Positions 1 through 9,461 of a stretch of 9,461 bases of DNA are shown here, piece after piece. Every line of letters begins with the position of its first letter. Position 1 is the first letter of the stretch. Origin of the DNA: a virus (taxonomy: Duplodnaviria; Heunggongvirae; Uroviricota; Caudoviricetes). Position numbers and translations under genes: made by a program. The notes below the pieces were generated by a model. It did not search any database. It was not told the DNA's origin and saw only the letters and a list, made by a program, of their open reading frames with translations. Where the stretch lies: the IMG/VR virus record IMGVR_UViG_2565956711_000008. One strand, written 5' to 3'.

Positions 1-1236
1 CTATGATAACCGCGCATTCAACATGGCTACCTGTTCGTCGTTCATGTCATCAATCCACATACCGTAAATTTCATACACCATCTGCGCAGTTTCATGCCCC
101 ATTTGGCTGGCTATAAATGCCGGGTTCGCTCCTGCCGTCAACAGCCAGCAGGCAAAAGTATGCCGCGTATGGTACGGATTACGGCGGCGAATACCAGCAC
201 GTTTTACTGCTGCATTCCACCTTGCCCCCAAACTGCTTACCGAGTAATAAGGTTTTTGTTTTCCGTTACACACCCTGGGCATGAAAACAAAATGCAGTTT
301 TTGCTTTTCGGTTCTGCCGTACTCCCGATGATAAAAGGTGATTTCGCTTTTGCGATGATGCCCGGTCAGTTTGTATTGCTCCTTCAGTGCTTCAAGAGCA
401 GGCTGCAGTAGTGTTACCGTCCGGATCCCCGCATTTGTTTTTGGGGGACCGAACATATCCAGTATCGTCAGGTTTCTTCTGACATTCACAACTCCCTTCT
501 CGAAATCCACATCCTCCCACGCCAGAGCAGCCAGTTCCCCGTGACGAAGCCCGGAGTATACGGCAAATTTCCACAAGTTCTGGCTCTGTCCTTTTTCACT
601 TTCCATTAATGCATTGAATTCTGTTTTAGATAACGGGTCAGGCTTTATTCTGTTTCTCTGTAATTTCTTTACTCCTTCAAATGGTTTGGTTGATATAAAT
701 CCCGACTGATACGCAAAACGTAACAACGAACAGAGCAGGGCGATATAGTTATCAACTGTGCGCACGGTTCTTCCTTTTTTGTTGGATCTTGGATTATCCA
801 GGTAAAGCGTTTCTCCATGCAGCAGTTCATTCCGGTAGTTTAAGATATCGCTATAACGAATATGCGATATCGGAGTACTCTCACAAATTATTATCCTGAG
901 TGTTTTTAATTGTGATTTCGTTTTCTTCATTGTGTTTGTTGTTAACTCTGTTTCTTTAATTTTTGTCCAGATATCACAAAGCTCCCCGAACGTTTTTATG
1001 ACCCTCGTTGTCACCATTTTTGCCCCAGTGCTGGACTGGGGAAAACGTCTTAAATACTCAAACTCACCGGAATTGATTTCATGAACTATCAACGCTCTTA
1101 AATTCCCGGCTTTTTTAATGTTACTGTTAGTAACCTCCCAGCCTTTCAATGTTTCCCGACATCGTTTTCCTCGAAACATGAACCAGATGCGAATGTATTT
1201 ACCTCGAATCTCGACACCTGTTGGTAATTTAGACAT
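1..1236 (-). CDS. intR: Tyrosine-type site-specific integrase, Rac prophage IntR-like
   Basis: Uninterrupted 411-aa ORF with stop at 1-3 and ATG at 1234-1236. N-terminus MSKLPTGVEIRGKYIRIWF and overall sequence match my recollection of Rac IntR. C-terminal region carries the tyrosine-recombinase signature (HTRHTFACWL ... YEIYGMW). An excisionase-like ORF ends 2 nt upstream, the usual xis-int arrangement. Confidence 0.93.
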   Translation of the reverse strand: MSKLPTGVEIRGKYIRIWFMFRGKRCRETLKGWEVTNSNIKKAGNLRALIVHEINSGEFEYLRRFPQSSTGAKMVTTRVIKTFGELCDIWTKIKETELTTNTMKKTKSQLKTLRIIICESTPISHIRYSDILNYRNELLHGETLYLDNPRSNKKGRTVRTVDNYIALLCSLLRFAYQSGFISTKPFEGVKKLQRNRIKPDPLSKTEFNALMESEKGQSQNLWKFAVYSGLRHGELAALAWEDVDFEKGVVNVRRNLTILDMFGPPKTNAGIRTVTLLQPALEALKEQYKLTGHHRKSEITFYHREYGRTEKQKLHFVFMPRVCNGKQKPYYSVSSLGARWNAAVKRAGIRRRNPYHTRHTFACWLLTAGANPAFIASQMGHETAQMVYEIYGMWIDDMNDEQVAMLNARLS

Positions 1237-1237
1237 A

Positions 1238-1453
1238 TCATGAGTCTTTGATAAACTGATTTATCTTTGGATAGTTATACCAGATAATCCCTCGCTTACT
1301 GTCTGGCTTCCCTAAAGGAGATACTCGTTTGAAGTGGAAGCCTTCCACCCAACAGTTCTGGCGGTATGCTTCAATTTGTCTGGCCCCCAGACCAGTGCGA
1401 AGCATCAGGCCGTATTCAACCATCCACTCTTCATTAAAGATTACTTGTGCCAT
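1238..1453 (-). CDS. xisR: Excisionase-like small protein (Rac XisR/YdaQ-like), 71 aa
   Basis: ORF in the track spans 1238-1477 from a TTG. The in-frame ATG at 1451-1453 ([14 protein letters not shown]...) is preceded by AGGTGA 5 nt upstream, so I take that as the start. Stop TGA at 1238-1240 lies 2 nt before the int ATG. Small and int-adjacent; name by recollection of Rac ydaQ. Confidence 0.72.
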
Positions 1454-1490
1454 CGCATCACCTCTGGCAGGCGCCAATGTTAGACTTAAA

Positions 1491-1518
1491 TTGACGCCCG
1501 ATGTTGATTATTAATAAT
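1491..1518 (+). promoter_or_regulatory. Candidate sigma70 promoter on the plus strand, reading antisense into ydaC/ralR
   Basis: TTGACG at 1491-1496, 16-nt spacer, AATAAT at 1513-1518 (5/6 matches to each consensus hexamer). Lies in the 99-bp gap between xis and ydaC. Sequence match only; AT-rich intergenic DNA gives such matches by chance. Confidence 0.3.
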
Positions 1519-1552
1519 CAGCTATGAAGTTTTAATTTGAATACAATGCAAT

Positions 1553-1741
1553 TCACGAGGACTGAAGTTTCTCGCAATTAAAATTTATCAGTTTTACTTT
1601 CTGCTCTCTGGAAACGCCTGCTTCTTTTTTACCTGAGAGCATTTTTTCGCATTCTGATTTCGTTAGTTTAGATTTTGAATATCTTGTCCAGTTAGTAGGA
1701 GTGCCACCTTCCTTTTCAATAGTGGCGGTAATTTTATACAT
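1553..1741 (-). CDS. ydaC: Small Rac prophage protein of unknown function (YdaC-like), 62 aa
   Basis: ORF MYKITATIEKEGGTPTNWTRYSKSKLTKSECEKMLSGKKEAGVSREQKVKLINFNCEKLQSS. ATG at 1739-1741 is preceded by GGAGGTG and is embedded in the last codons of the ralR frame (overlapping genes). Position between xis and ralR matches the Rac gene order I recall. Confidence 0.6.
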   Translation of the reverse strand: MYKITATIEKEGGTPTNWTRYSKSKLTKSECEKMLSGKKEAGVSREQKVKLINFNCEKLQSS

Positions 1742-1928
1742 GAACACCTCCATTATTATTTCCAGTGGTTCGTTTATTTCATCGTTCGAGTGCTTCTTTT
1801 TCACTTCCACCATAACCGGTTCGGGATTCGCATCCGTTACACTTCGCTCGGTAATATCCTGAAATGGCTTTCACCGTTACTGATGGACAACCACAAAATG
1901 GACATGGTTTAACATTGTCATATCTCAT
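1734..1928 (-). pseudogene. ralR: RalR (Lar) type I toxin / restriction-alleviation gene with an internal in-frame TGA
   Basis: From ATG 1926-1928 the frame reads MRYDNVKPCPFCGCPSVTVKAISGYYRAKCNGCESRTGYGGSEKEALER, then TGA at 1779-1781, then continues open as NKRTTGNNNGGVHV to TAA at 1734-1736, overlapping the ydaC ATG. My recollection of RalR has Trp (TGG) at the stop position, so this looks like a TGG-to-TGA change giving a 49-aa product. Confidence 0.62.
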
Positions 1929-1955
1929 AATTTTTCTCATAAAAATATTTCAAGT

Positions 1956-1976
1956 TGGCGGTGCATTACACCGCCA
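1956..1976 (-). other. Inverted repeat / RNA hairpin between recT stop and ralR start
   Basis: TGGCGGTG (1956-1963), loop CATTA, CACCGCCA (1969-1976): a perfect 8-bp GC-rich stem. On the minus-strand transcript it is followed after 6 nt by AAUAUUUUU. Could be a weak terminator or an attenuator upstream of ralR. Confidence 0.25.
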
Positions 1977-1996
1977 GGCTGAATTATTCCTCTGAA

Positions 1997-2794
1997 TTAT
2001 CGATTACACTGTATTCCCCCGGTTAATACAGAGGAATCTGCAGGATCGATTGTCAGTGGTTCCTTTTCATCCATTGATACTGCACGCTGGATCTCAATTG
2101 ATACGGGCAGATATTTGAACAGGCGACGAATAGCCGTTTTCTTTGCCATTTCTTCCCAGTGAGTTACCCACGGCCCGTTATTACCAGCTTTACTCTGGCT
2201 GCGCACCAGCTCAATCTGTTTGCGCGTCATAACTTCAAACTGAGTACCTCCGTCTTTCAGTCTTGCGACAGCATAGACGTGGGTAACAGGGGCATCTTCG
2301 TTTTCTCCTGGGCGGTGTATTAACTTTTCATCAAGGCCAAATTCGAAATTAAACTCGTCACCTTCACGGACAACACGGGCTGACAAGCTGGCGATTTGAC
2401 CTGAACGGCGAGCCAGATCAATCATGCCGCGATAGCCAATGATTAGCTGAACGTTTTTTTTACCGCTCTTTTCGTTTTTATTACCAAAAGGCAGTAAATA
2501 TGCATGACCGAGGGCGCTACCGGGCTCAAGTCCGAGCTGTGAACACTGTACGATTGCACTGACAAAACTCATAGTGTCACAGTTTCCTAACGCCGGAACT
2601 TTACGAATTTCTGTGGTGGCGATACGGATCATACGTTCAGCCGTCATATGGCGTGGAAGAGCTGCTGCCAGTTGCTCTTTCATTGATGGCTGGTTAATAA
2701 AACTAATCACGTCGTTATTTTTAATTGCTGCTGGTGCACGGTTTCCCTGAGTTTTTTGCAGATCGGCTTTTGCGATTGGTGGTTGCTTAGTCAT
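1997..2794 (-). CDS. recT: RecT single-strand annealing recombinase, with altered C-terminal tail
   Basis: ORF from ATG 2792-2794 ([21 protein letters not shown]...) to TAA 1997-1999; AAGGAA lies upstream. Start overlaps the recE stop (ATGACTAAG), the classical recE-recT coupling. Matches my recollection of RecT except the last residues, which read GIQCNR instead of [10 protein letters not shown]. Confidence 0.9.
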
Positions 2795-4137
2795 TTGCAT
2801 ATTCCTTAGCCCAGCGGGGCAGTGATAACGTCTTAATAGCTGGCCATTCATCGGTATTGAGGCAGTCAGCCAGGGTTCGCAGATTGCGGTGATATTCCAG
2901 CTGACCTGCCAGTTTTGCTTCTTCGCCCATCATGAAAATTTCAACCGGATAACGTCCGCATTCAATAGTTGTGCTGGCAACCAGAAAAACGAAAGTTGGC
3001 TGCACTCCAAACTGTGCTTCATAACCGTCACTGTAGAATGCATCCTGAACGTGATAGCGGTAGTCGTAATAAGCGGTTTTGAATCGTTGAATATCCGCCG
3101 TAGTTTTCACGTCCATGATCCAGTGAAATTCAGGGATAATTTTGTCCGGACGGCACCGACACAAAATTGCTGTTTCAGGATCTTCCCAGTAAATTGATGA
3201 TTCAGCGTGTCCGGCGCTTTCAACAAGCCATTGCCCCAGCGGCAAAGCCATAACGCTCTGATACATGAGTTCAATTTTCCGGCCTTCTTCGGCAGTGATA
3301 ACCGTTTTTCCTGTGCTTGCGCATTCCCTCAGAAACGCTTTCTCTTCTTCTTTTCCGGAGTTTGTCCGGCGGTTAAATTCAGGTGCTACGATAAAGCGGT
3401 TACTGAATTCTTCCGGCTCAAGTACCCGGCAGTGGAAAGCGGTTCCTAAATCGAGCGTTTTTGTCTTTGTGGTGTCCACGGGGGCATTTTTACGCCACAA
3501 ATACAGTGCCGGAGTATCAGCAATGTCATCGAGCTGAGACTTACTGACACCGGGACCCGCGTGGTAATTCTCATTCGAAATTCCGTAATAAATACCTGGC
3601 TCTATGTCTTCTACGATTACGGGATCTGCGACTTCGCCAGTTTCATCACTGCAATCGCGATGCGGATCGCTGCCAGCATTCTCATTGTGCGGATGTTCAG
3701 CGCCTTCCATTTCCTCCGGATCATTTTCCTTAGCTTCAACCTGACTCTCTTCATCGAATGTTTCCTGGTATGTTGCGTCGCCCATCACCGCACCACAGTC
3801 AGGGCAGTTATCCCCGCCAGTCTGGCCGCAGGCATTGCAGGCTATTTCCGGTTCCTGTTGCACTACTGGCTCAGGTTGATTCATATCCGGGCTGGTTTTT
3901 TCCGTTTCTGGCTGGTTCTGGTACACACAATCGCGAGTCTGGATCCCCTTTACCCATTTCGGATCGTTCGGGTCGCTAATTCCGTCAACAAATTCACCAC
4001 GTGATGCAGCAAGCAATTTATCGGCATCGACAGGATTTTTTGATGGAATGTTTTTCCGGGCTTCATGGAGTTCTGCCCGCAGTTCCTGATATTTCGCATC
4101 AACAGAATTTACCTGTGACTGAGCATCCAGCGGCTGG
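2787..4137 (-). pseudogene. recE: 5'-truncated recE (exonuclease VIII) remnant retaining the complete C-terminal nuclease domain
   Basis: Minus-strand frame is open from the stop at 4182-4184 down to TAA 2787-2789. Translation from about 4137 downward ([23 protein letters not shown]...[10 protein letters not shown]...[13 protein letters not shown]) matches roughly the C-terminal half of RecE as I recall it. No recE N-terminal half is present; upstream the frame runs into antisense IS1. First in-frame start is the TTG at 4014-4016, with no obvious Shine-Dalgarno. Confidence 0.85.
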
Positions 4138-4351
4138 CTGGCCGCTGTATGAATCCCGCCTGAAGGGAAAGCTGCACGTAATCAGCAAGCGATATACGCA
4201 GCGAATTGAGCGGCATAACCTGAATCTGAGGCAGCACCTGGCACGGCTGGGACGGAAGTCGCTGTCGTTCTCAAAATCGGTGGAGCTGCATGACAAAGTC
4301 ATCGGGCATTATCTGAACATAAAACACTATCAATAAGTTGGAGTCATTACC
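4135..4351 (+). mobile_element. Partial IS1 (3' terminal ~217 bp: insB 3' end and right terminal inverted repeat)
   Basis: Plus-strand translation [66 protein letters not shown] equals the C-terminus of IS1 InsB as I recall it. It is followed by the IS1 terminal sequence AAGTTGGAGTCATTACC ending at 4351. The rest of IS1 is absent. Confidence 0.85.
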
Positions 4352-4551
4352 GCGCTCTTTACTCATTCGTTTACAACGTGGGTGCTGGCAATTTCAGAAC
4401 ATCGACGCTTCTTCGCAAAATAAACCAGGGCGATATCAAAGGCGCATGTGATCAGCTACGTCGCTGGACATATGCTGGCGGTAAGCAATGGAAAGGTCTC
4501 ATGACTCGTCGTGAGATTGAGCGTGAAATCTGTTTGTGGGGTCAGCAATGA
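4352..4551 (+). pseudogene. 3' fragment of a lambdoid phage lysozyme (endolysin R-like) gene, truncated by IS1
   Basis: Immediately after the IS1 end the frame reads [65 protein letters not shown], the C-terminus of the lysozyme family I recall from E. coli lambdoid prophages. Stop TGA at 4549-4551 overlaps the Rz ATG (ATGA). No N-terminal catalytic part and no start codon. Confidence 0.8.
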
Positions 4552-5012
4552 ACAGAGTAACCGCGATTATCTCCGCTCTGGTTATCTGCATCATCGTCTG
4601 CCTGTCATGGGCTGTTAATCATTACCGTGATAACGCCATTACCTACAAAGCCCAGCGCGACAAAAATGCCAGAGAACTGAAGCTGGCGTACGCGGCAATT
4701 ACTGACATGCAGATGCGTCAGCGTGATGTTGCTGCGCTCGATGCAAAATACACGAAGGAGTTAGCTGATGCGAAAGCTGAAAATGATGCTCTGCGTGATG
4801 ATGTTGCCGCTGGTCGTCGTCGGTTGCACATCAAAGCAGTCTGTCAGTCAGTGCGTGAAGCCACCACCGCCTCCGGCGTGGATAATGCAGCCTCCCCCCG
4901 ACTGGCAGACACCGCTGAACGGGATTATTTCACCCTCCGGGAACGACTGGTAATGATGCAGGCCCAACTTGAAGGTGCTCAGCAATACATAACCGAGCAG
5001 TGTTTAAAGTAA
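4548..5012 (+). CDS. rzpR: Rz-like inner-membrane spanin, 154 aa
   Basis: [55 protein letters not shown]... is near-identical to lambda Rz as I recall it: N-terminal transmembrane helix, coiled-coil periplasmic domain. ATG overlaps the lysozyme-fragment stop. Confidence 0.88.
4768..4953 (+). CDS. rzoR: Rz1-like outer-membrane lipoprotein spanin, embedded in the +1 frame of Rz
   Basis: [57 protein letters not shown]...: signal peptide with lipobox (VVGC) and the proline-rich mature region typical of lambda Rz1. Wholly nested inside Rz. Confidence 0.85.
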
Positions 5013-5149
5013 AATCTTAACTACAATATGATTCATTTTGATGATTGTTTCATAAGGAACAGTGAAGTAAGATCTAAGAGGAGTTAAATTTTATACAGTA
5101 TAATCATAATATTGCAGCAAGGTGGTTATAATTGAAAGAATATTTAGAT
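5013..5149 (+). promoter_or_regulatory. AT-rich upstream region of trkG (promoter not resolved)
   Basis: 137-bp strongly AT-rich gap. Consensus -10 hexamer TATAAT at 5099-5104 but no convincing -35 at the right spacing. AAGGTGG at 5119-5125. Confidence 0.3.
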
Positions 5150-6607
5150 ATGAATACATCTCATGTAAGAGTTGTTACTCATATGTGTGGGTTCTTGGTT
5201 TGGCTCTATAGTCTTTCAATGTTGCCACCAATGGTTGTAGCATTGTTTTATAAAGAAAAAAGCCTGTTCGTTTTCTTTATAACTTTCGTTATATTTTTTT
5301 GCATTGGTGGCGGAGCGTGGTATACAACTAAGAAATCTGGCATTCAATTACGTACCCGTGATGGGTTTATTATAATTGTAATGTTTTGGATTTTGTTTTC
5401 TGTTATTAGTGCATTCCCTTTATGGATTGACTCAGAACTTAATTTAACGTTCATTGATGCTCTGTTTGAAGGGGTTTCTGGAATAACAACAACAGGAGCA
5501 ACTGTAATTGATGATGTTAGTTCATTACCTCGGGCATATTTGTACTATCGGTCACAGTTAAATTTTATAGGTGGTTTAGGAGTTATTGTTCTGGCGGTTG
5601 CAGTATTGCCATTATTGGGTATTGGTGGTGCAAAGCTTTATCAGTCAGAAATGCCGGGGCCATTTAAGGATGACAAACTCACTCCCCGCCTGGCCGATAC
5701 GTCACGGACACTGTGGATAACTTATTCTTTATTAGGTATTGCTTGTATTGTCTGTTATAGACTTGCAGGAATGCCTTTGTTTGATGCTATTTGTCACGGG
5801 ATTTCCACAGTTTCGCTTGGTGGTTTCTCAACTCATAGCGAGAGTATCGGATATTTTAATAACTATTTGGTTGAGCTGGTGGCTGGTTCTTTTTCCCTGC
5901 TATCGGCTTTCAACTTCACTCTTTGGTATATTGTTATTAGCAGAAAAACGATAAAACCTTTAATCAGAGATATTGAACTTCGTTTCTTTCTGTTAATAGC
6001 CTTAGGGGTGATCATTGTTACCTCTTTCCAGGTCTGGCATATAGGTATGTATGACTTGCATGGAAGTTTTATTCATTCGTTTTTTCTTGCCAGCTCCATG
6101 CTCACTGATAATGGTTTAGCTACGCAGGATTATGCAAACTGGCCCACGCACACGATAGTGTTTTTGCTGTTGTCAAGTTTCTTTGGGGGATGTATAGGTT
6201 CAACCTGTGGTGGAATTAAGTCACTTCGATTTCTTATACTTTTCAAACAAAGCAAACACGAGATAAATCAGCTTTCTCATCCCAGAGCGTTGTTGAGTGT
6301 AAATGTAGGAGGGAAGATAGTTACAGATCGTGTAATGAGGTCTGTATGGAGTTTCTTTTTTCTTTATACTCTCTTCACGGTGTTTTTTATACTGGTGTTA
6401 AATGGTATGGGATATGATTTTCTTACATCATTTGCAACAGTGGCTGCATGTATTAATAATATGGGATTAGGTTTTGGGGCTACTGCATCGTCATTCGGAG
6501 TGCTTAATGACATTGCAAAGTATTTAATGTGCATAGCTATGATTCTTGGTCGCCTTGAAATTTATCCTGTTATTATATTGTTTTCAGGTTTTTTTTGGCG
6601 CTCCTAA
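5150..6607 (+). CDS. trkG: TrkG potassium uptake protein (TrkH/TrkG family), 485 aa
   Basis: ORF MNTSHVRVVTHMCGFLVWLYSLSMLPP... to TAA 6605-6607, matching my recollection of Rac TrkG. Multi-pass membrane protein with the family glycine motifs (e.g. TTTGATV, GGLG). Markedly AT-rich relative to flanking phage genes. The ORF is also open from TTG 5132, which has a better-spaced Shine-Dalgarno. Confidence 0.9.
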   Translation: MNTSHVRVVTHMCGFLVWLYSLSMLPPMVVALFYKEKSLFVFFITFVIFFCIGGGAWYTTKKSGIQLRTRDGFIIIVMFWILFSVISAFPLWIDSELNLTFIDALFEGVSGITTTGATVIDDVSSLPRAYLYYRSQLNFIGGLGVIVLAVAVLPLLGIGGAKLYQSEMPGPFKDDKLTPRLADTSRTLWITYSLLGIACIVCYRLAGMPLFDAICHGISTVSLGGFSTHSESIGYFNNYLVELVAGSFSLLSAFNFTLWYIVISRKTIKPLIRDIELRFFLLIALGVIIVTSFQVWHIGMYDLHGSFIHSFFLASSMLTDNGLATQDYANWPTHTIVFLLLSSFFGGCIGSTCGGIKSLRFLILFKQSKHEINQLSHPRALLSVNVGGKIVTDRVMRSVWSFFFLYTLFTVFFILVLNGMGYDFLTSFATVAACINNMGLGFGATASSFGVLNDIAKYLMCIAMILGRLEIYPVIILFSGFFWRS

Positions 6608-6693
6608 TATATGGCTGATTTATAATTGTGAGTTTAATATTATGTTGACTCACTCATTGATCCAATACCTAACTTTACCAGCAACACCTCCGC

Positions 6694-6729
6694 CCCCAGC
6701 AGCACTGGCTGCTGGGGTGCGTTTTATTC
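6694..6729 (+). terminator. Rho-independent terminator downstream of trkG
   Basis: Perfect 10-bp GC-rich stem CCCCAGCAGC (6694-6703), loop ACTG, GCTGCTGGGG (6708-6717), then TGCGTTTTATTC. Begins 87 nt after the trkG stop. Confidence 0.55.
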
Positions 6730-6766
6730 ATAAAGCAAGGCTGTATGAGCGAGAAATTAAAGATAG

Positions 6767-8812
6767 TCTAACGGGAAATACACCGCACAGGATGCAACGA
6801 CAGCACAGAAAGGGATAATCCAGCTAAGCAGCGCGACCAACAGCACGTCTGAAACGCTGGCGGCAACGCCAAAGGCAGTAAAATCAGCCTATGACAATGC
6901 AGAGAAACGTCTGCAGAAAGACCAGAACGGCGCTGATATACCCGATAAGGGACGCTTCCTGAACAACATTAACGCGGTCAGTAAAACAGACTTTGCTGAT
7001 AAGCGTGGTATGCGTTATGTGCGGGTTAACGCTCCTGCAGGTGCAACATCTGGAAAATATTACCCTGTTGTTGTTATGCGTTCTGCTGGCTCAGTAAGCG
7101 AACTGGCATCAAGGGTCATTATCACCACGGCAACGCGAACCGCAGGCGATCCGATGAATAACTGCGAGTTTAACGGATTTGTTATGCCTGGTGGCTGGAC
7201 TGACAGGGGGCGTTATGCTTATGGAATGTTCTGGCAATATCAAAACAATGAACGAGCCATCCACTCAATAATGATGAGTAATAAGGGCGATGATTTGCGC
7301 TCTGTGTTCTATGTTGATGGCGCTGCTTTCCCTGTTTTTGCGTTTATCGAAGATGGCCTGTCAATATCCGCACCTGGTGCTGATCTCGTTGTTAATGATA
7401 CGACCTATAAGTTTGGGGCAACAAATCCAGCGACTGAATGTATCGCGGCGGACGTTATCCTTGATTTTAAGAGTGGGCGTGGTTTTTATGAGTCTCATTC
7501 GTTAATCGTTAACGATAACTTGTCGTGCAAAAAACTTTTTGCCACAGACGAAATTGTAGCGCGTGGTGGTAATCAGATTCGAATGATAGGTGGGGAGTAT
7601 GGGGCATTATGGCGTAATGATGGCGCTAAAACTTACCTGCTGCTTACCAATCAAGGTGATGTTTATGGTGGATGGAATACATTAAGACCGTTTGCTATTG
7701 ATAACGCAACCGGCGAACTGGTTATTGGAACCAAGCTGTCTGCAAGTCTGAACGGTAACGCATTGACAGCAACAAAGCTGCAAACGCCAAGACTGGTTTC
7801 TGGGGTTGAGTTTGATGGTTCAAAAGATATTACTTTAACCGCCGCGCATGTGGCTGCTTTTGCCAGAAGGGCAACGGATACATATGCCGATGCGGATGGT
7901 GGCGTTCCCTGGAATGCCGAATCAGGCGCTTACAATGTCACCCGCTCTGGCGACAGCTATATTCTGGTTAACTTCTATACCGGAGTCGGAAGTTGCCGGA
8001 CCCTGCAGATGAAGGCGCATTACAGAAATGGTGGTCTGTTCTACCGTTCTTCAAGAGACGGTTATGGTTTTGAGGAAGACTGGGCAGAAGTTTATACCTC
8101 GAAAAATCTTCCACCAGAAAGCTACCCAGTCGGCGCACCAATCCCGTGGCCATCAGATACCGTTCCGTCTGGTTATGCCCTGATGCAGGGGCAGACTTTT
8201 GACAAATCTGCTTACCCGAAACTTGCAGCCGCTTATCCGTCAGGCGTGATCCCTGATATGCGTGGCTGGACGATTAAGGGCAAGCCCGCCAGTGGTCGGG
8301 CCGTATTGTCTCAGGAACAGGACGGCATTAAATCACACACCCACAGCGCCAGCGTATCCAGTACGGATTTGGGGACGAAAACCACATCGTCGTTTGATTA
8401 CGGCACTAAATCCACGAATAACACTGGTGCGCATACTCATAGTTTAAGTGGCAGCACGAATGCAGCTGGTAATCACAGCCATAGAGATGGCCGTCGATTT
8501 AACCCCAGTGTTTTTAAAGATACTTATCAATATGGTTATACAAGCTCAGGTCAAAATACCTGGGGTGTACAAGGCTCAGTAGGTATGTCTACGGGGTGGT
8601 TAGCTAATACCAGTACAGATGGTAATCATAGCCACTCACTGTCCGGCACAGCAGCATCTGCAGGTGCACACGCGCATACTGTCGGTATTGGTGCTCATAC
8701 GCACTCCGTTGCGATTGGTTCACATGGACACACCATCACCGTTAACGCTGCTGGTAATGCGGAAAACACCGTCAAAAACATCGCATTTAACTATATTGTG
8801 AGGCTTGCATAA
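6767..8812 (+). pseudogene. stfR: 5'-truncated side tail fibre gene (lambda Stf / Rac StfR-like), C-terminal ~680 codons
   Basis: Frame is open from the stop at 6764-6766 to TAA 8810-8812. From about 6790 it reads [31 protein letters not shown]..., the conserved internal tail-fibre motif (lambda Stf has it mid-protein). It ends [31 protein letters not shown], identical to the lambda Stf C-terminus as I recall it. No N-terminal region is present; the first in-frame ATG is at 7010 and lacks a good ribosome-binding site. Confidence 0.85.
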
Positions 8813-9448: not shown

Positions 9449-9461
9449 GGCTGTATTTTAA

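Follow-up and report, generated by a model that had tools for sequence, protein, structure and literature searches.

An IS1-bounded deletion scar between recE and rrrD in a decayed Rac prophage of Escherichia coli

Introduction

How did the interior of recE come to be joined, in a Rac-type prophage, to a fragment of IS1 that in turn abuts a truncated lysozyme gene? This arrangement occurs in a viral sequence of 9,461 bp (IMG/VR record IMGVR_UViG_2565956711_000008), the whole of which is referred to here as the window. Adjacent deletions mediated by IS1 are well established. In the classical form, the element remains whole and the new joint lies at the IS1 end. A first-pass annotation of the window, made from the letters alone, proposed something different: a deletion junction that implied either at least two steps or an illegitimate join inside IS1. 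We evaluated this proposal by aligning the window with a reference IS1, with the Rac prophage of strain K-12 and with a full-length relative from strain EC7, and by comparing the locus across public genomes.

Results

Composition of the window

Judged by its gene content, the window is a decayed Rac prophage of about 9.4 kb adjoining ttcA. The locus of genome EC09 (NZ_CM169492.1) is identical to it at 9,456 of 9,461 bases, and the RefSeq annotation of EC09 gives the order intR, xisR, a DUF1187 gene, ralR, recT, 5'-truncated recE, a partial IS1, 5'-truncated rrrD, an Rz-type lysis gene, trkG, a 5'-truncated tail-fibre gene and tfaR. Based on this annotation and on the alignment to K-12 Rac, the features that identify Rac were present: a position adjacent to ttcA, intR-xisR, recT-recE and trkG. 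The immunity and toxin region of Rac (kilR, sieB, a racR-type repressor and ydaS/ydaT) was absent, as were the replication genes. Given its mismatches with EC09, the window derives from a sister genome rather than from EC09.

The Rac prophages of K-12 (b1345-b1375) and EC7 share with the window the ttcA-side integration, the intR-xisR-ralR-recT-recE left arm, and Rz-trkG and stfR-tfaR in the right part. Unlike these two, the window is without recE codons 1-417 and the genes from racC to the holin, and carries in their place an IS1 stub and a lysozyme remnant. K-12 Rac itself lacks the lysozyme gene and has kept racC through ydaW.

Three further features of the window were noted. First, all five mismatches with EC09 (8299, 8335, 8374, 8389 and 8953) fall in the tail-fibre/tfaR region; other members of the carrier lineage differ from the window at four to seven sites overall. 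The clustered differences possibly reflect recombination with the tail-fibre genes of other prophages. Second, there is another Rac deletion junction at 6770-6789: the match to K-12 stops at 6770, just inside ynaK, and resumes at 6789, inside stfR, with 18 bases without a match in between. This second deletion removed approximately 5 kb of K-12 Rac (ynaK through the 5' part of stfR) and, measured on full-length Rac, the entire head and tail module. Strain CFSAN061772 has a join that resembles this junction and is not identical to it. Third, a run of five C at 2016-2020, in place of four in EC7, shifts the frame at the 3' end of recT. The shifted RecT ends in ...LTGGIQCNR, with only its last ~10 residues altered, and is annotated as 'frameshifted'. 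The shift is polymorphic in the carrier lineage: RecT has 265 residues in loci L007-L016 and 269 in L017, L019 and L020.

Breakpoints of the junctions

Positions 1-4136 of the window aligned without a break to K-12 Rac (L013 2001-6136) at 98.1% identity and to the corresponding part of EC7 (L005 18802-22936) at 99.95%, with two differences in 4,136 bp. On the other side, positions 4352-6770 matched the rrrD-Rz-trkG region of EC7 (L005 37504-39922) at 99.46%. The right arm is thus less close to EC7 than the left arm, which indicates that the immediate ancestor was not EC7-like throughout.

The join between recE and the interior of IS1 was placed at 4135..4136 by a three-way alignment in which the window was set against its recE parent (L005) and against IS1A (L003). 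The minus-strand recE match had been estimated to run to about 4137; the alignment supported the join and fixed the exact end of recE at 4136. In terms of the parent sequences, the breakpoint lies at codon 417/418 of K-12 recE and at nt 552 of IS1A. Positions 4135-4351 were identical to IS1A at 217 of 217 bases, in agreement with the original reading of this segment as the final ~217 bp of a plus-oriented IS1. We also looked for a continuation of recE upstream in another frame. No recE sequence was found in any frame within 4137-4351, all of whose bases aligned to IS1.

The only overlap between recE and IS1 at the join is TG (4135-4136), so that the crossover can be placed only to the interval from 4134/4135 to 4136/4137. 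This TG sits in an imperfect 6-mer, CGGCTG in recE and CGGATG in IS1. By our estimate, two or more shared base pairs are expected at approximately 16% of random joins. The overlap is thus no more than expected by chance, and the join is effectively homology-free. The microhomology of a few bp that had been suggested at 4133-4140 was therefore real as to some overlap and overstated as to size, as it amounts to two exact bp at chance level. The GGCTGGCTGG at the join consists of the GGCTG of recE and the GGCTG of IS1, both retained side by side. Since slippage on this 5-mer would have left a single copy, the 5-mer was not used for the join. At 4128-4147, the join also creates a 7-bp inverted repeat, CAGCGGC on the recE side and GCCGCTG on the IS1 side with a loop of six bases, which is probably a coincidence in GC-rich sequence.

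One assembly, L009 (GCA_023600455.1; 5560-5620), reads CGGATGG at this place, which would shift the crossover to a 3-bp CGG. As this version is a singleton among about 60 contigs, it was rejected as derived. L009 has A instead of C at window position 4134, matching IS1, by a later point change or by conversion from another IS1 copy.

Remnants at the scar

The 5'-truncated recE (exonuclease VIII) occupies 2787..4136 on the minus strand and comprises codons 418-866 and the stop, based on blastp against K-12 RecE, RefSeq annotation and Pfam. In the blastp alignment, residues ~418-866 of K-12 RecE were covered at 98.4%. Exactly 417 codons (1-417) are gone, together with the start codon and the promoter region, so that the 866-codon gene is incomplete and has neither a start nor an upstream promoter of its own. 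Consistent with this, RefSeq labels the gene in EC09 'incomplete; missing N-terminus'. The C-terminal PD-(D/E)XK nuclease domain is retained, and PF12684 is recorded for the product.

The IS1A fragment (4135..4351, plus strand) corresponds to nt 552-768 of the 768-bp element and was compared with the copy at L003 12208-12975. It comprises the 3'-terminal 66 codons of insB together with the right inverted repeat, and is without insA, the left end and a full transposase. The right terminal inverted repeat, ATCAATAAGTTGGAGTCATTACC, is intact at 4329..4351 (plus strand) by alignment to the end of full IS1A, and the stub ends on the exact terminal base of IS1 (...GTTGGAGTCATTACC). Nucleotide identity to the reference element assigns the fragment to IS1. 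Of the other features of the element, it has the right terminal repeat only, with homology stopping at nt 552, and does not have the insA-insB' frames with their programmed frameshift. The left end and the left flank, with any target-site duplication, were deleted. By eye, nothing at the truncation point (nt 552) resembles an IS1 end, cryptic or otherwise. With one end and no transposase, the stub cannot transpose.

An ORF of 97 codons (4043..4336, plus strand) spans the recE/IS1 join and was called as a gene, with PF03400. It consists of 31 codons antisense to recE followed by the C-terminus of InsB, and is a by-product of the join.

IS1 ends at 4351 and nt 299 of rrrD follows at 4352, so that an intact IS1 right end does directly abut a 5'-truncated lysozyme gene, as first described. 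The remnant (4352..4551, plus strand) represents nt 299-498 of the 498-nt gene, based on alignment to EC7 (L005 37504 on), in which the rrrD CDS lies at L005 37206-37703. It contains 65 whole codons, the number originally counted, and the stop at 4354-4551. The N-terminal 99 codons are missing, and with them the N-terminal catalytic part of the complete 165-codon RrrD. RefSeq labels the remnant 'lysozyme RrrD, missing N-terminus', and PF00959 is recorded for it (L011). The lysozyme remnant is, by prediction, dead. On the right side of the scar, intact genes resume with that for an Rz-type lysis protein (4548..5012, plus strand; WP_001515238.1; PF03245), which is followed by trkG.

Extent of the loss

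Compared with EC7 Rac, 14,567 bp are missing (L005 22937-37503), in addition to nt 1-551 of IS1. The left part of the missing block comprises recE codons 1-417, a racC-like gene, ydaE, kilR, sieB and ydaF. The right part comprises a repressor/cro-like pair, ydaT, replication genes, a hok-family gene, nin-type genes and the holin gene essD. At its right limit, the block includes the first 99 codons of rrrD and reaches into codon 100. The immunity, kil, superinfection-exclusion and replication region, described at the outset as absent from the window, is thus present in its entirety in a full-length relative.

Recurrent loss of the recE-to-rrrD block

In three complete genomes, recE is fused directly to rrrD, with no IS1 at the join. 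In EC7 coordinates, the joins are 23555/37262 in 18AR0366 (3-bp overlap), 23767/37370 in PCP06171 (3-bp overlap) and 23768/37399 in CFSAN061772 (7-bp blastn overlap). PCP06171 (L003 7129-7214) and CFSAN061772 (L004 7130-7215) have a common recE endpoint and differ by approximately 29 bp between …GTTAC and …GTATAC. This suggests that the CFSAN061772 scar arose from the PCP06171 scar by a secondary slippage deletion.

These genomes resemble the window in that the same block was lost, the left endpoint lies in the dispensable 5' half of recE, the right endpoint lies in or at rrrD, and the RecE nuclease domain, recT, Rz and trkG were retained. They differ from it in that the joins are direct, without IS1, and in that they carry another recE allele. 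Specifically, the recE remnant of the window (2787-4136) differs at 17-20 sites from 18AR0366, PCP06171 and CFSAN061772, and at none from EC7. Derivation of the window from the IS1-free deletions was rejected based on these SNP patterns. The data are best read as independent loss of the recE-to-rrrD block in at least two other lineages, with the window as a third apparently independent event.

Origin of the scar

We observed the breakpoints, the identities of the segments, the size of the loss and its inheritance by many isolates, and deduced the order and number of the steps and the repair pathway. Very probably, insertion of IS1 in rrrD was followed by one or more illegitimate deletions that extended from within the element into recE. 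In the first step, a full IS1A would have entered rrrD of Rac in plus orientation, with its right end against nt 299; the target duplication matching such an insertion would be GCGCTCTT(T). In the second, one or more transposase-independent illegitimate deletions would have extended leftwards from IS1 nt 551/552 to recE codon 417/418, with the loss of nt 1-551 of IS1 and ~14.6 kb of Rac. At the right junction, IS1 is complete to its very last base, as expected of an end made by transposase, which argues that a whole IS1 once sat in rrrD. With at most two bp of homology, the left join points to end joining or replication slippage; neither the IS1 transposase nor homologous recombination would have been involved.

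Insertions of IS1 are frequent in the carrier background, as indicated by the at least 39 IS1 places on the EC09 chromosome. Overall, IS1 matches were found in 4,964 of 5,426 genomes, with a median of about 10 per genome having any. A full IS1 at rrrD nt 299, the expected intermediate, was not found among the 5,426 complete genomes, so that we infer the insertion step rather than observe it. One deletion and several successive deletions would leave the same sequence; the simplest history would comprise two events. In locus L018 (OZ038837.1), an extra full-length IS1 in plus orientation (L018 1-619) abuts the recE remnant with its right end at window position ~3160, some 1 kb leftwards of the stub. 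Erosion of the locus by IS1 is thus still continuing.

The scar has in common with IS1-mediated adjacent deletions that an IS1 terminus bounds a large deletion in an IS1-rich genome. However, two thirds of the element were lost, and the novel joint lies at nt 552, where nothing is end-like; the right joint alone is terminal. The first-pass annotation was therefore correct that the event was no simple adjacent deletion that preserves the element, and the position of the left junction at IS1 nt 552 agrees with its alternative of at least two steps or an illegitimate join inside IS1. A less likely variant of the first step is that an adjacent deletion driven from the right end of IS1 would have brought the element to rrrD. 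Because the left IS1 end and the target-site duplication are gone, insertion and right-end adjacent deletion leave indistinguishable traces.

A related order of events is that an IS1 adjacent deletion came first and placed an intact IS1 beside recE or nearby DNA, and that the left 551 bp of the element were lost later, together with more of recE, in a second deletion. This order is compatible with the IS1-rich host background and with the 'at least two steps' of the first reading. Nevertheless, it calls for one more event than a single illegitimate deletion, and among the 5,426 complete genomes none was found in which recE at this locus adjoins an intact IS1. We consider it rather unlikely, while noting that the present sequence cannot distinguish it from insertion in rrrD followed by illegitimate deletion.

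The IS1-free deletions raise the alternative of stepwise erosion, in which a direct recE-rrrD loss of ~14 kb was followed by entry of IS1 into the surviving part of rrrD and then by an IS1-to-recE deletion of about 1.5 kb. The endpoints of the window are indeed nested inside those of the other deletions (L005 23555/37262 and 23767/37370), and such scars keep eroding, the CFSAN061772 scar corresponding to the PCP06171 scar minus ~29 bp between short direct repeats. The sequence of the recE remnant makes this alternative improbable: it is EC7-like and unlike the three IS1-free strains, which marks it as a different Rac allele, and the deletion is therefore most simply independent.

Finally, break repair could have joined recE to rrrD while capturing a 215-bp copy from another IS1 as filler DNA; some 40 IS1 copies in the genome could have served as donors and the left join is almost without homology, yet the fragment stops precisely at the last nucleotide of IS1, as a random piece would in about 1 of 768 cases, and this route is extremely improbable.

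Functional potential of the scar

The scar probably has no functional product, as predicted from an inspection of its reading frames and signals. On the minus strand of 4016-4351, a consensus scan revealed no sigma-70-like promoter, and a scan of 3500-4700 for promoters and terminators returned nothing above the expectation from shuffled sequence. The recE remnant frame is closed upstream by stops in the IS1 antisense strand. The first start codon available in this frame, a TTG at 4016, lacks a Shine-Dalgarno sequence, and no ATG preceded by one was found at the head of the frame.

At least three independent events removed the stretch from the 5' part of recE to rrrD, and selection for a 'detoxified' Rac could account for this recurrence, with the IS1 end in the window perhaps adding read-in to the recE remnant and recT. 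We regard this as improbable. If true, such a Rac would have kept the RecE nuclease domain, RecT, Rz and trkG, and would have shed kilR, the repressor/ydaT toxin module and the holin all at once.

A more specific proposal is that transcription from the right end of IS1 drives the recE remnant and recT, as a natural counterpart of sbcA-type RecET activation. An inward promoter has been reported in the right end of IS1, and the C-terminal nuclease domain of RecE suffices for activity. The retained residues, 418-866, include this domain, and RecT is either intact or changed in no more than its ~10 C-terminal residues. The sbcA-type recE fusion and activation mutants of K-12, reportedly described by the Clark laboratory in the 1980s-90s, are similar to the scar in that the 5' part of recE and the repressed region upstream were deleted while the nuclease domain and recT were kept. 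In the sbcA deletions, however, recE comes under the control of an active promoter and is fused in frame to a start codon upstream, and neither such a promoter nor such a start was seen at the scar. Considering also the TTG start and the closed frame, rewiring of this kind is very improbable.

Distribution and assembly check

Among 5,426 complete RefSeq E. coli genomes, EC09 was the only one with either of the recE/IS1 and IS1/rrrD junctions, a rarity that by itself might point to an artefact. The match in BEN2908 consisted of two separate pieces spread over 220 bp and hence was not the same contiguous junction. In the further matches (H4-H29), the two pieces lay about 570 bp further apart than in the window, and essD and IS1 were annotated beside rrrD.

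To extend the comparison to other assemblies, the 97-codon ORF (4043-4336) was used as an exact-sequence marker for the junction. The identical ORF was present on 41 contigs and 16 close variants on approximately 20 more, giving about 60 contigs in all; it was indexed in 67 blocks of the collection, eight of which had contigs of >1 Mb. Among the carriers are drafts, gut-metagenome scaffolds and, from separate projects, five contigs or scaffolds of 2.9-5.1 Mb; strain KTE10 and an NCTC strain are represented. The 60-mers over both junctions were identical in 11 fetched loci (L001, L007, L008, L010, L012 and L015-L020). A look-up of the Rz allele of the window returned five draft or complete assemblies and one metagenome scaffold, all with the same structure.

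Two carriers of related sequences were set aside. Draft L011, one of the assemblies returned for the Rz allele, had appeared to be an IS1-free version shorter by 206 bp; this was rejected, as the locus contains a 100-N scaffold gap. A metagenome contig, L014 (1790-3294), has the recE/IS1 join followed by a variant IS1 end (GTTAGAG...) that runs into unrelated sequence; judging from this structure, it is probably a chimeric assembly across a repeat.

The concern that an assembler had collapsed a full IS1 and the intervening Rac genes, to which the highly repeated nature of IS1 and the gap of L011 exactly over 4016-4321 lent some weight, was dispelled by the identical junction in many independent assemblies, the five contigs or scaffolds of 2.9-5.1 Mb among them, and such an artefact is now next to inconceivable. 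Moreover, short-read contigs of >100 kb run straight through the 217-bp stub. As an IS1 present in some 40 copies would break such contigs, this read-through indicates that no full 768-bp IS1 is located there. The junction, shared by about 60 contigs of one lineage, is a clonally inherited, lineage-specific marker of one lineage of E. coli.

Discussion

The scar is a case of routine prophage decay and presents no new element, gene or mechanism. The NCBI pipeline already annotates it as three partial pseudogenes; literature searches revealed no description of the recE/IS1/rrrD junction. Its value is that of a textbook example of a prophage whittled down by IS insertion and then by illegitimate deletion, and of a base-exact clonal marker for about 60 public assemblies, reaching back at least to strain KTE10.

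[quoted passage not shown] Toxin genes are the usual losses, and conservation is highest for recE and trkG (PMC5700373). The repressor RacR is essential only as the silencer of ydaS/ydaT (PMC5700373), and a viable deletion must thus remove repressor and toxin together. The scar fits this published pattern: the toxin and immunity core was lost, and the C-terminal part of recE, recT and trkG were kept. As such, it adds one more data point to the erosion of Rac in E. coli.
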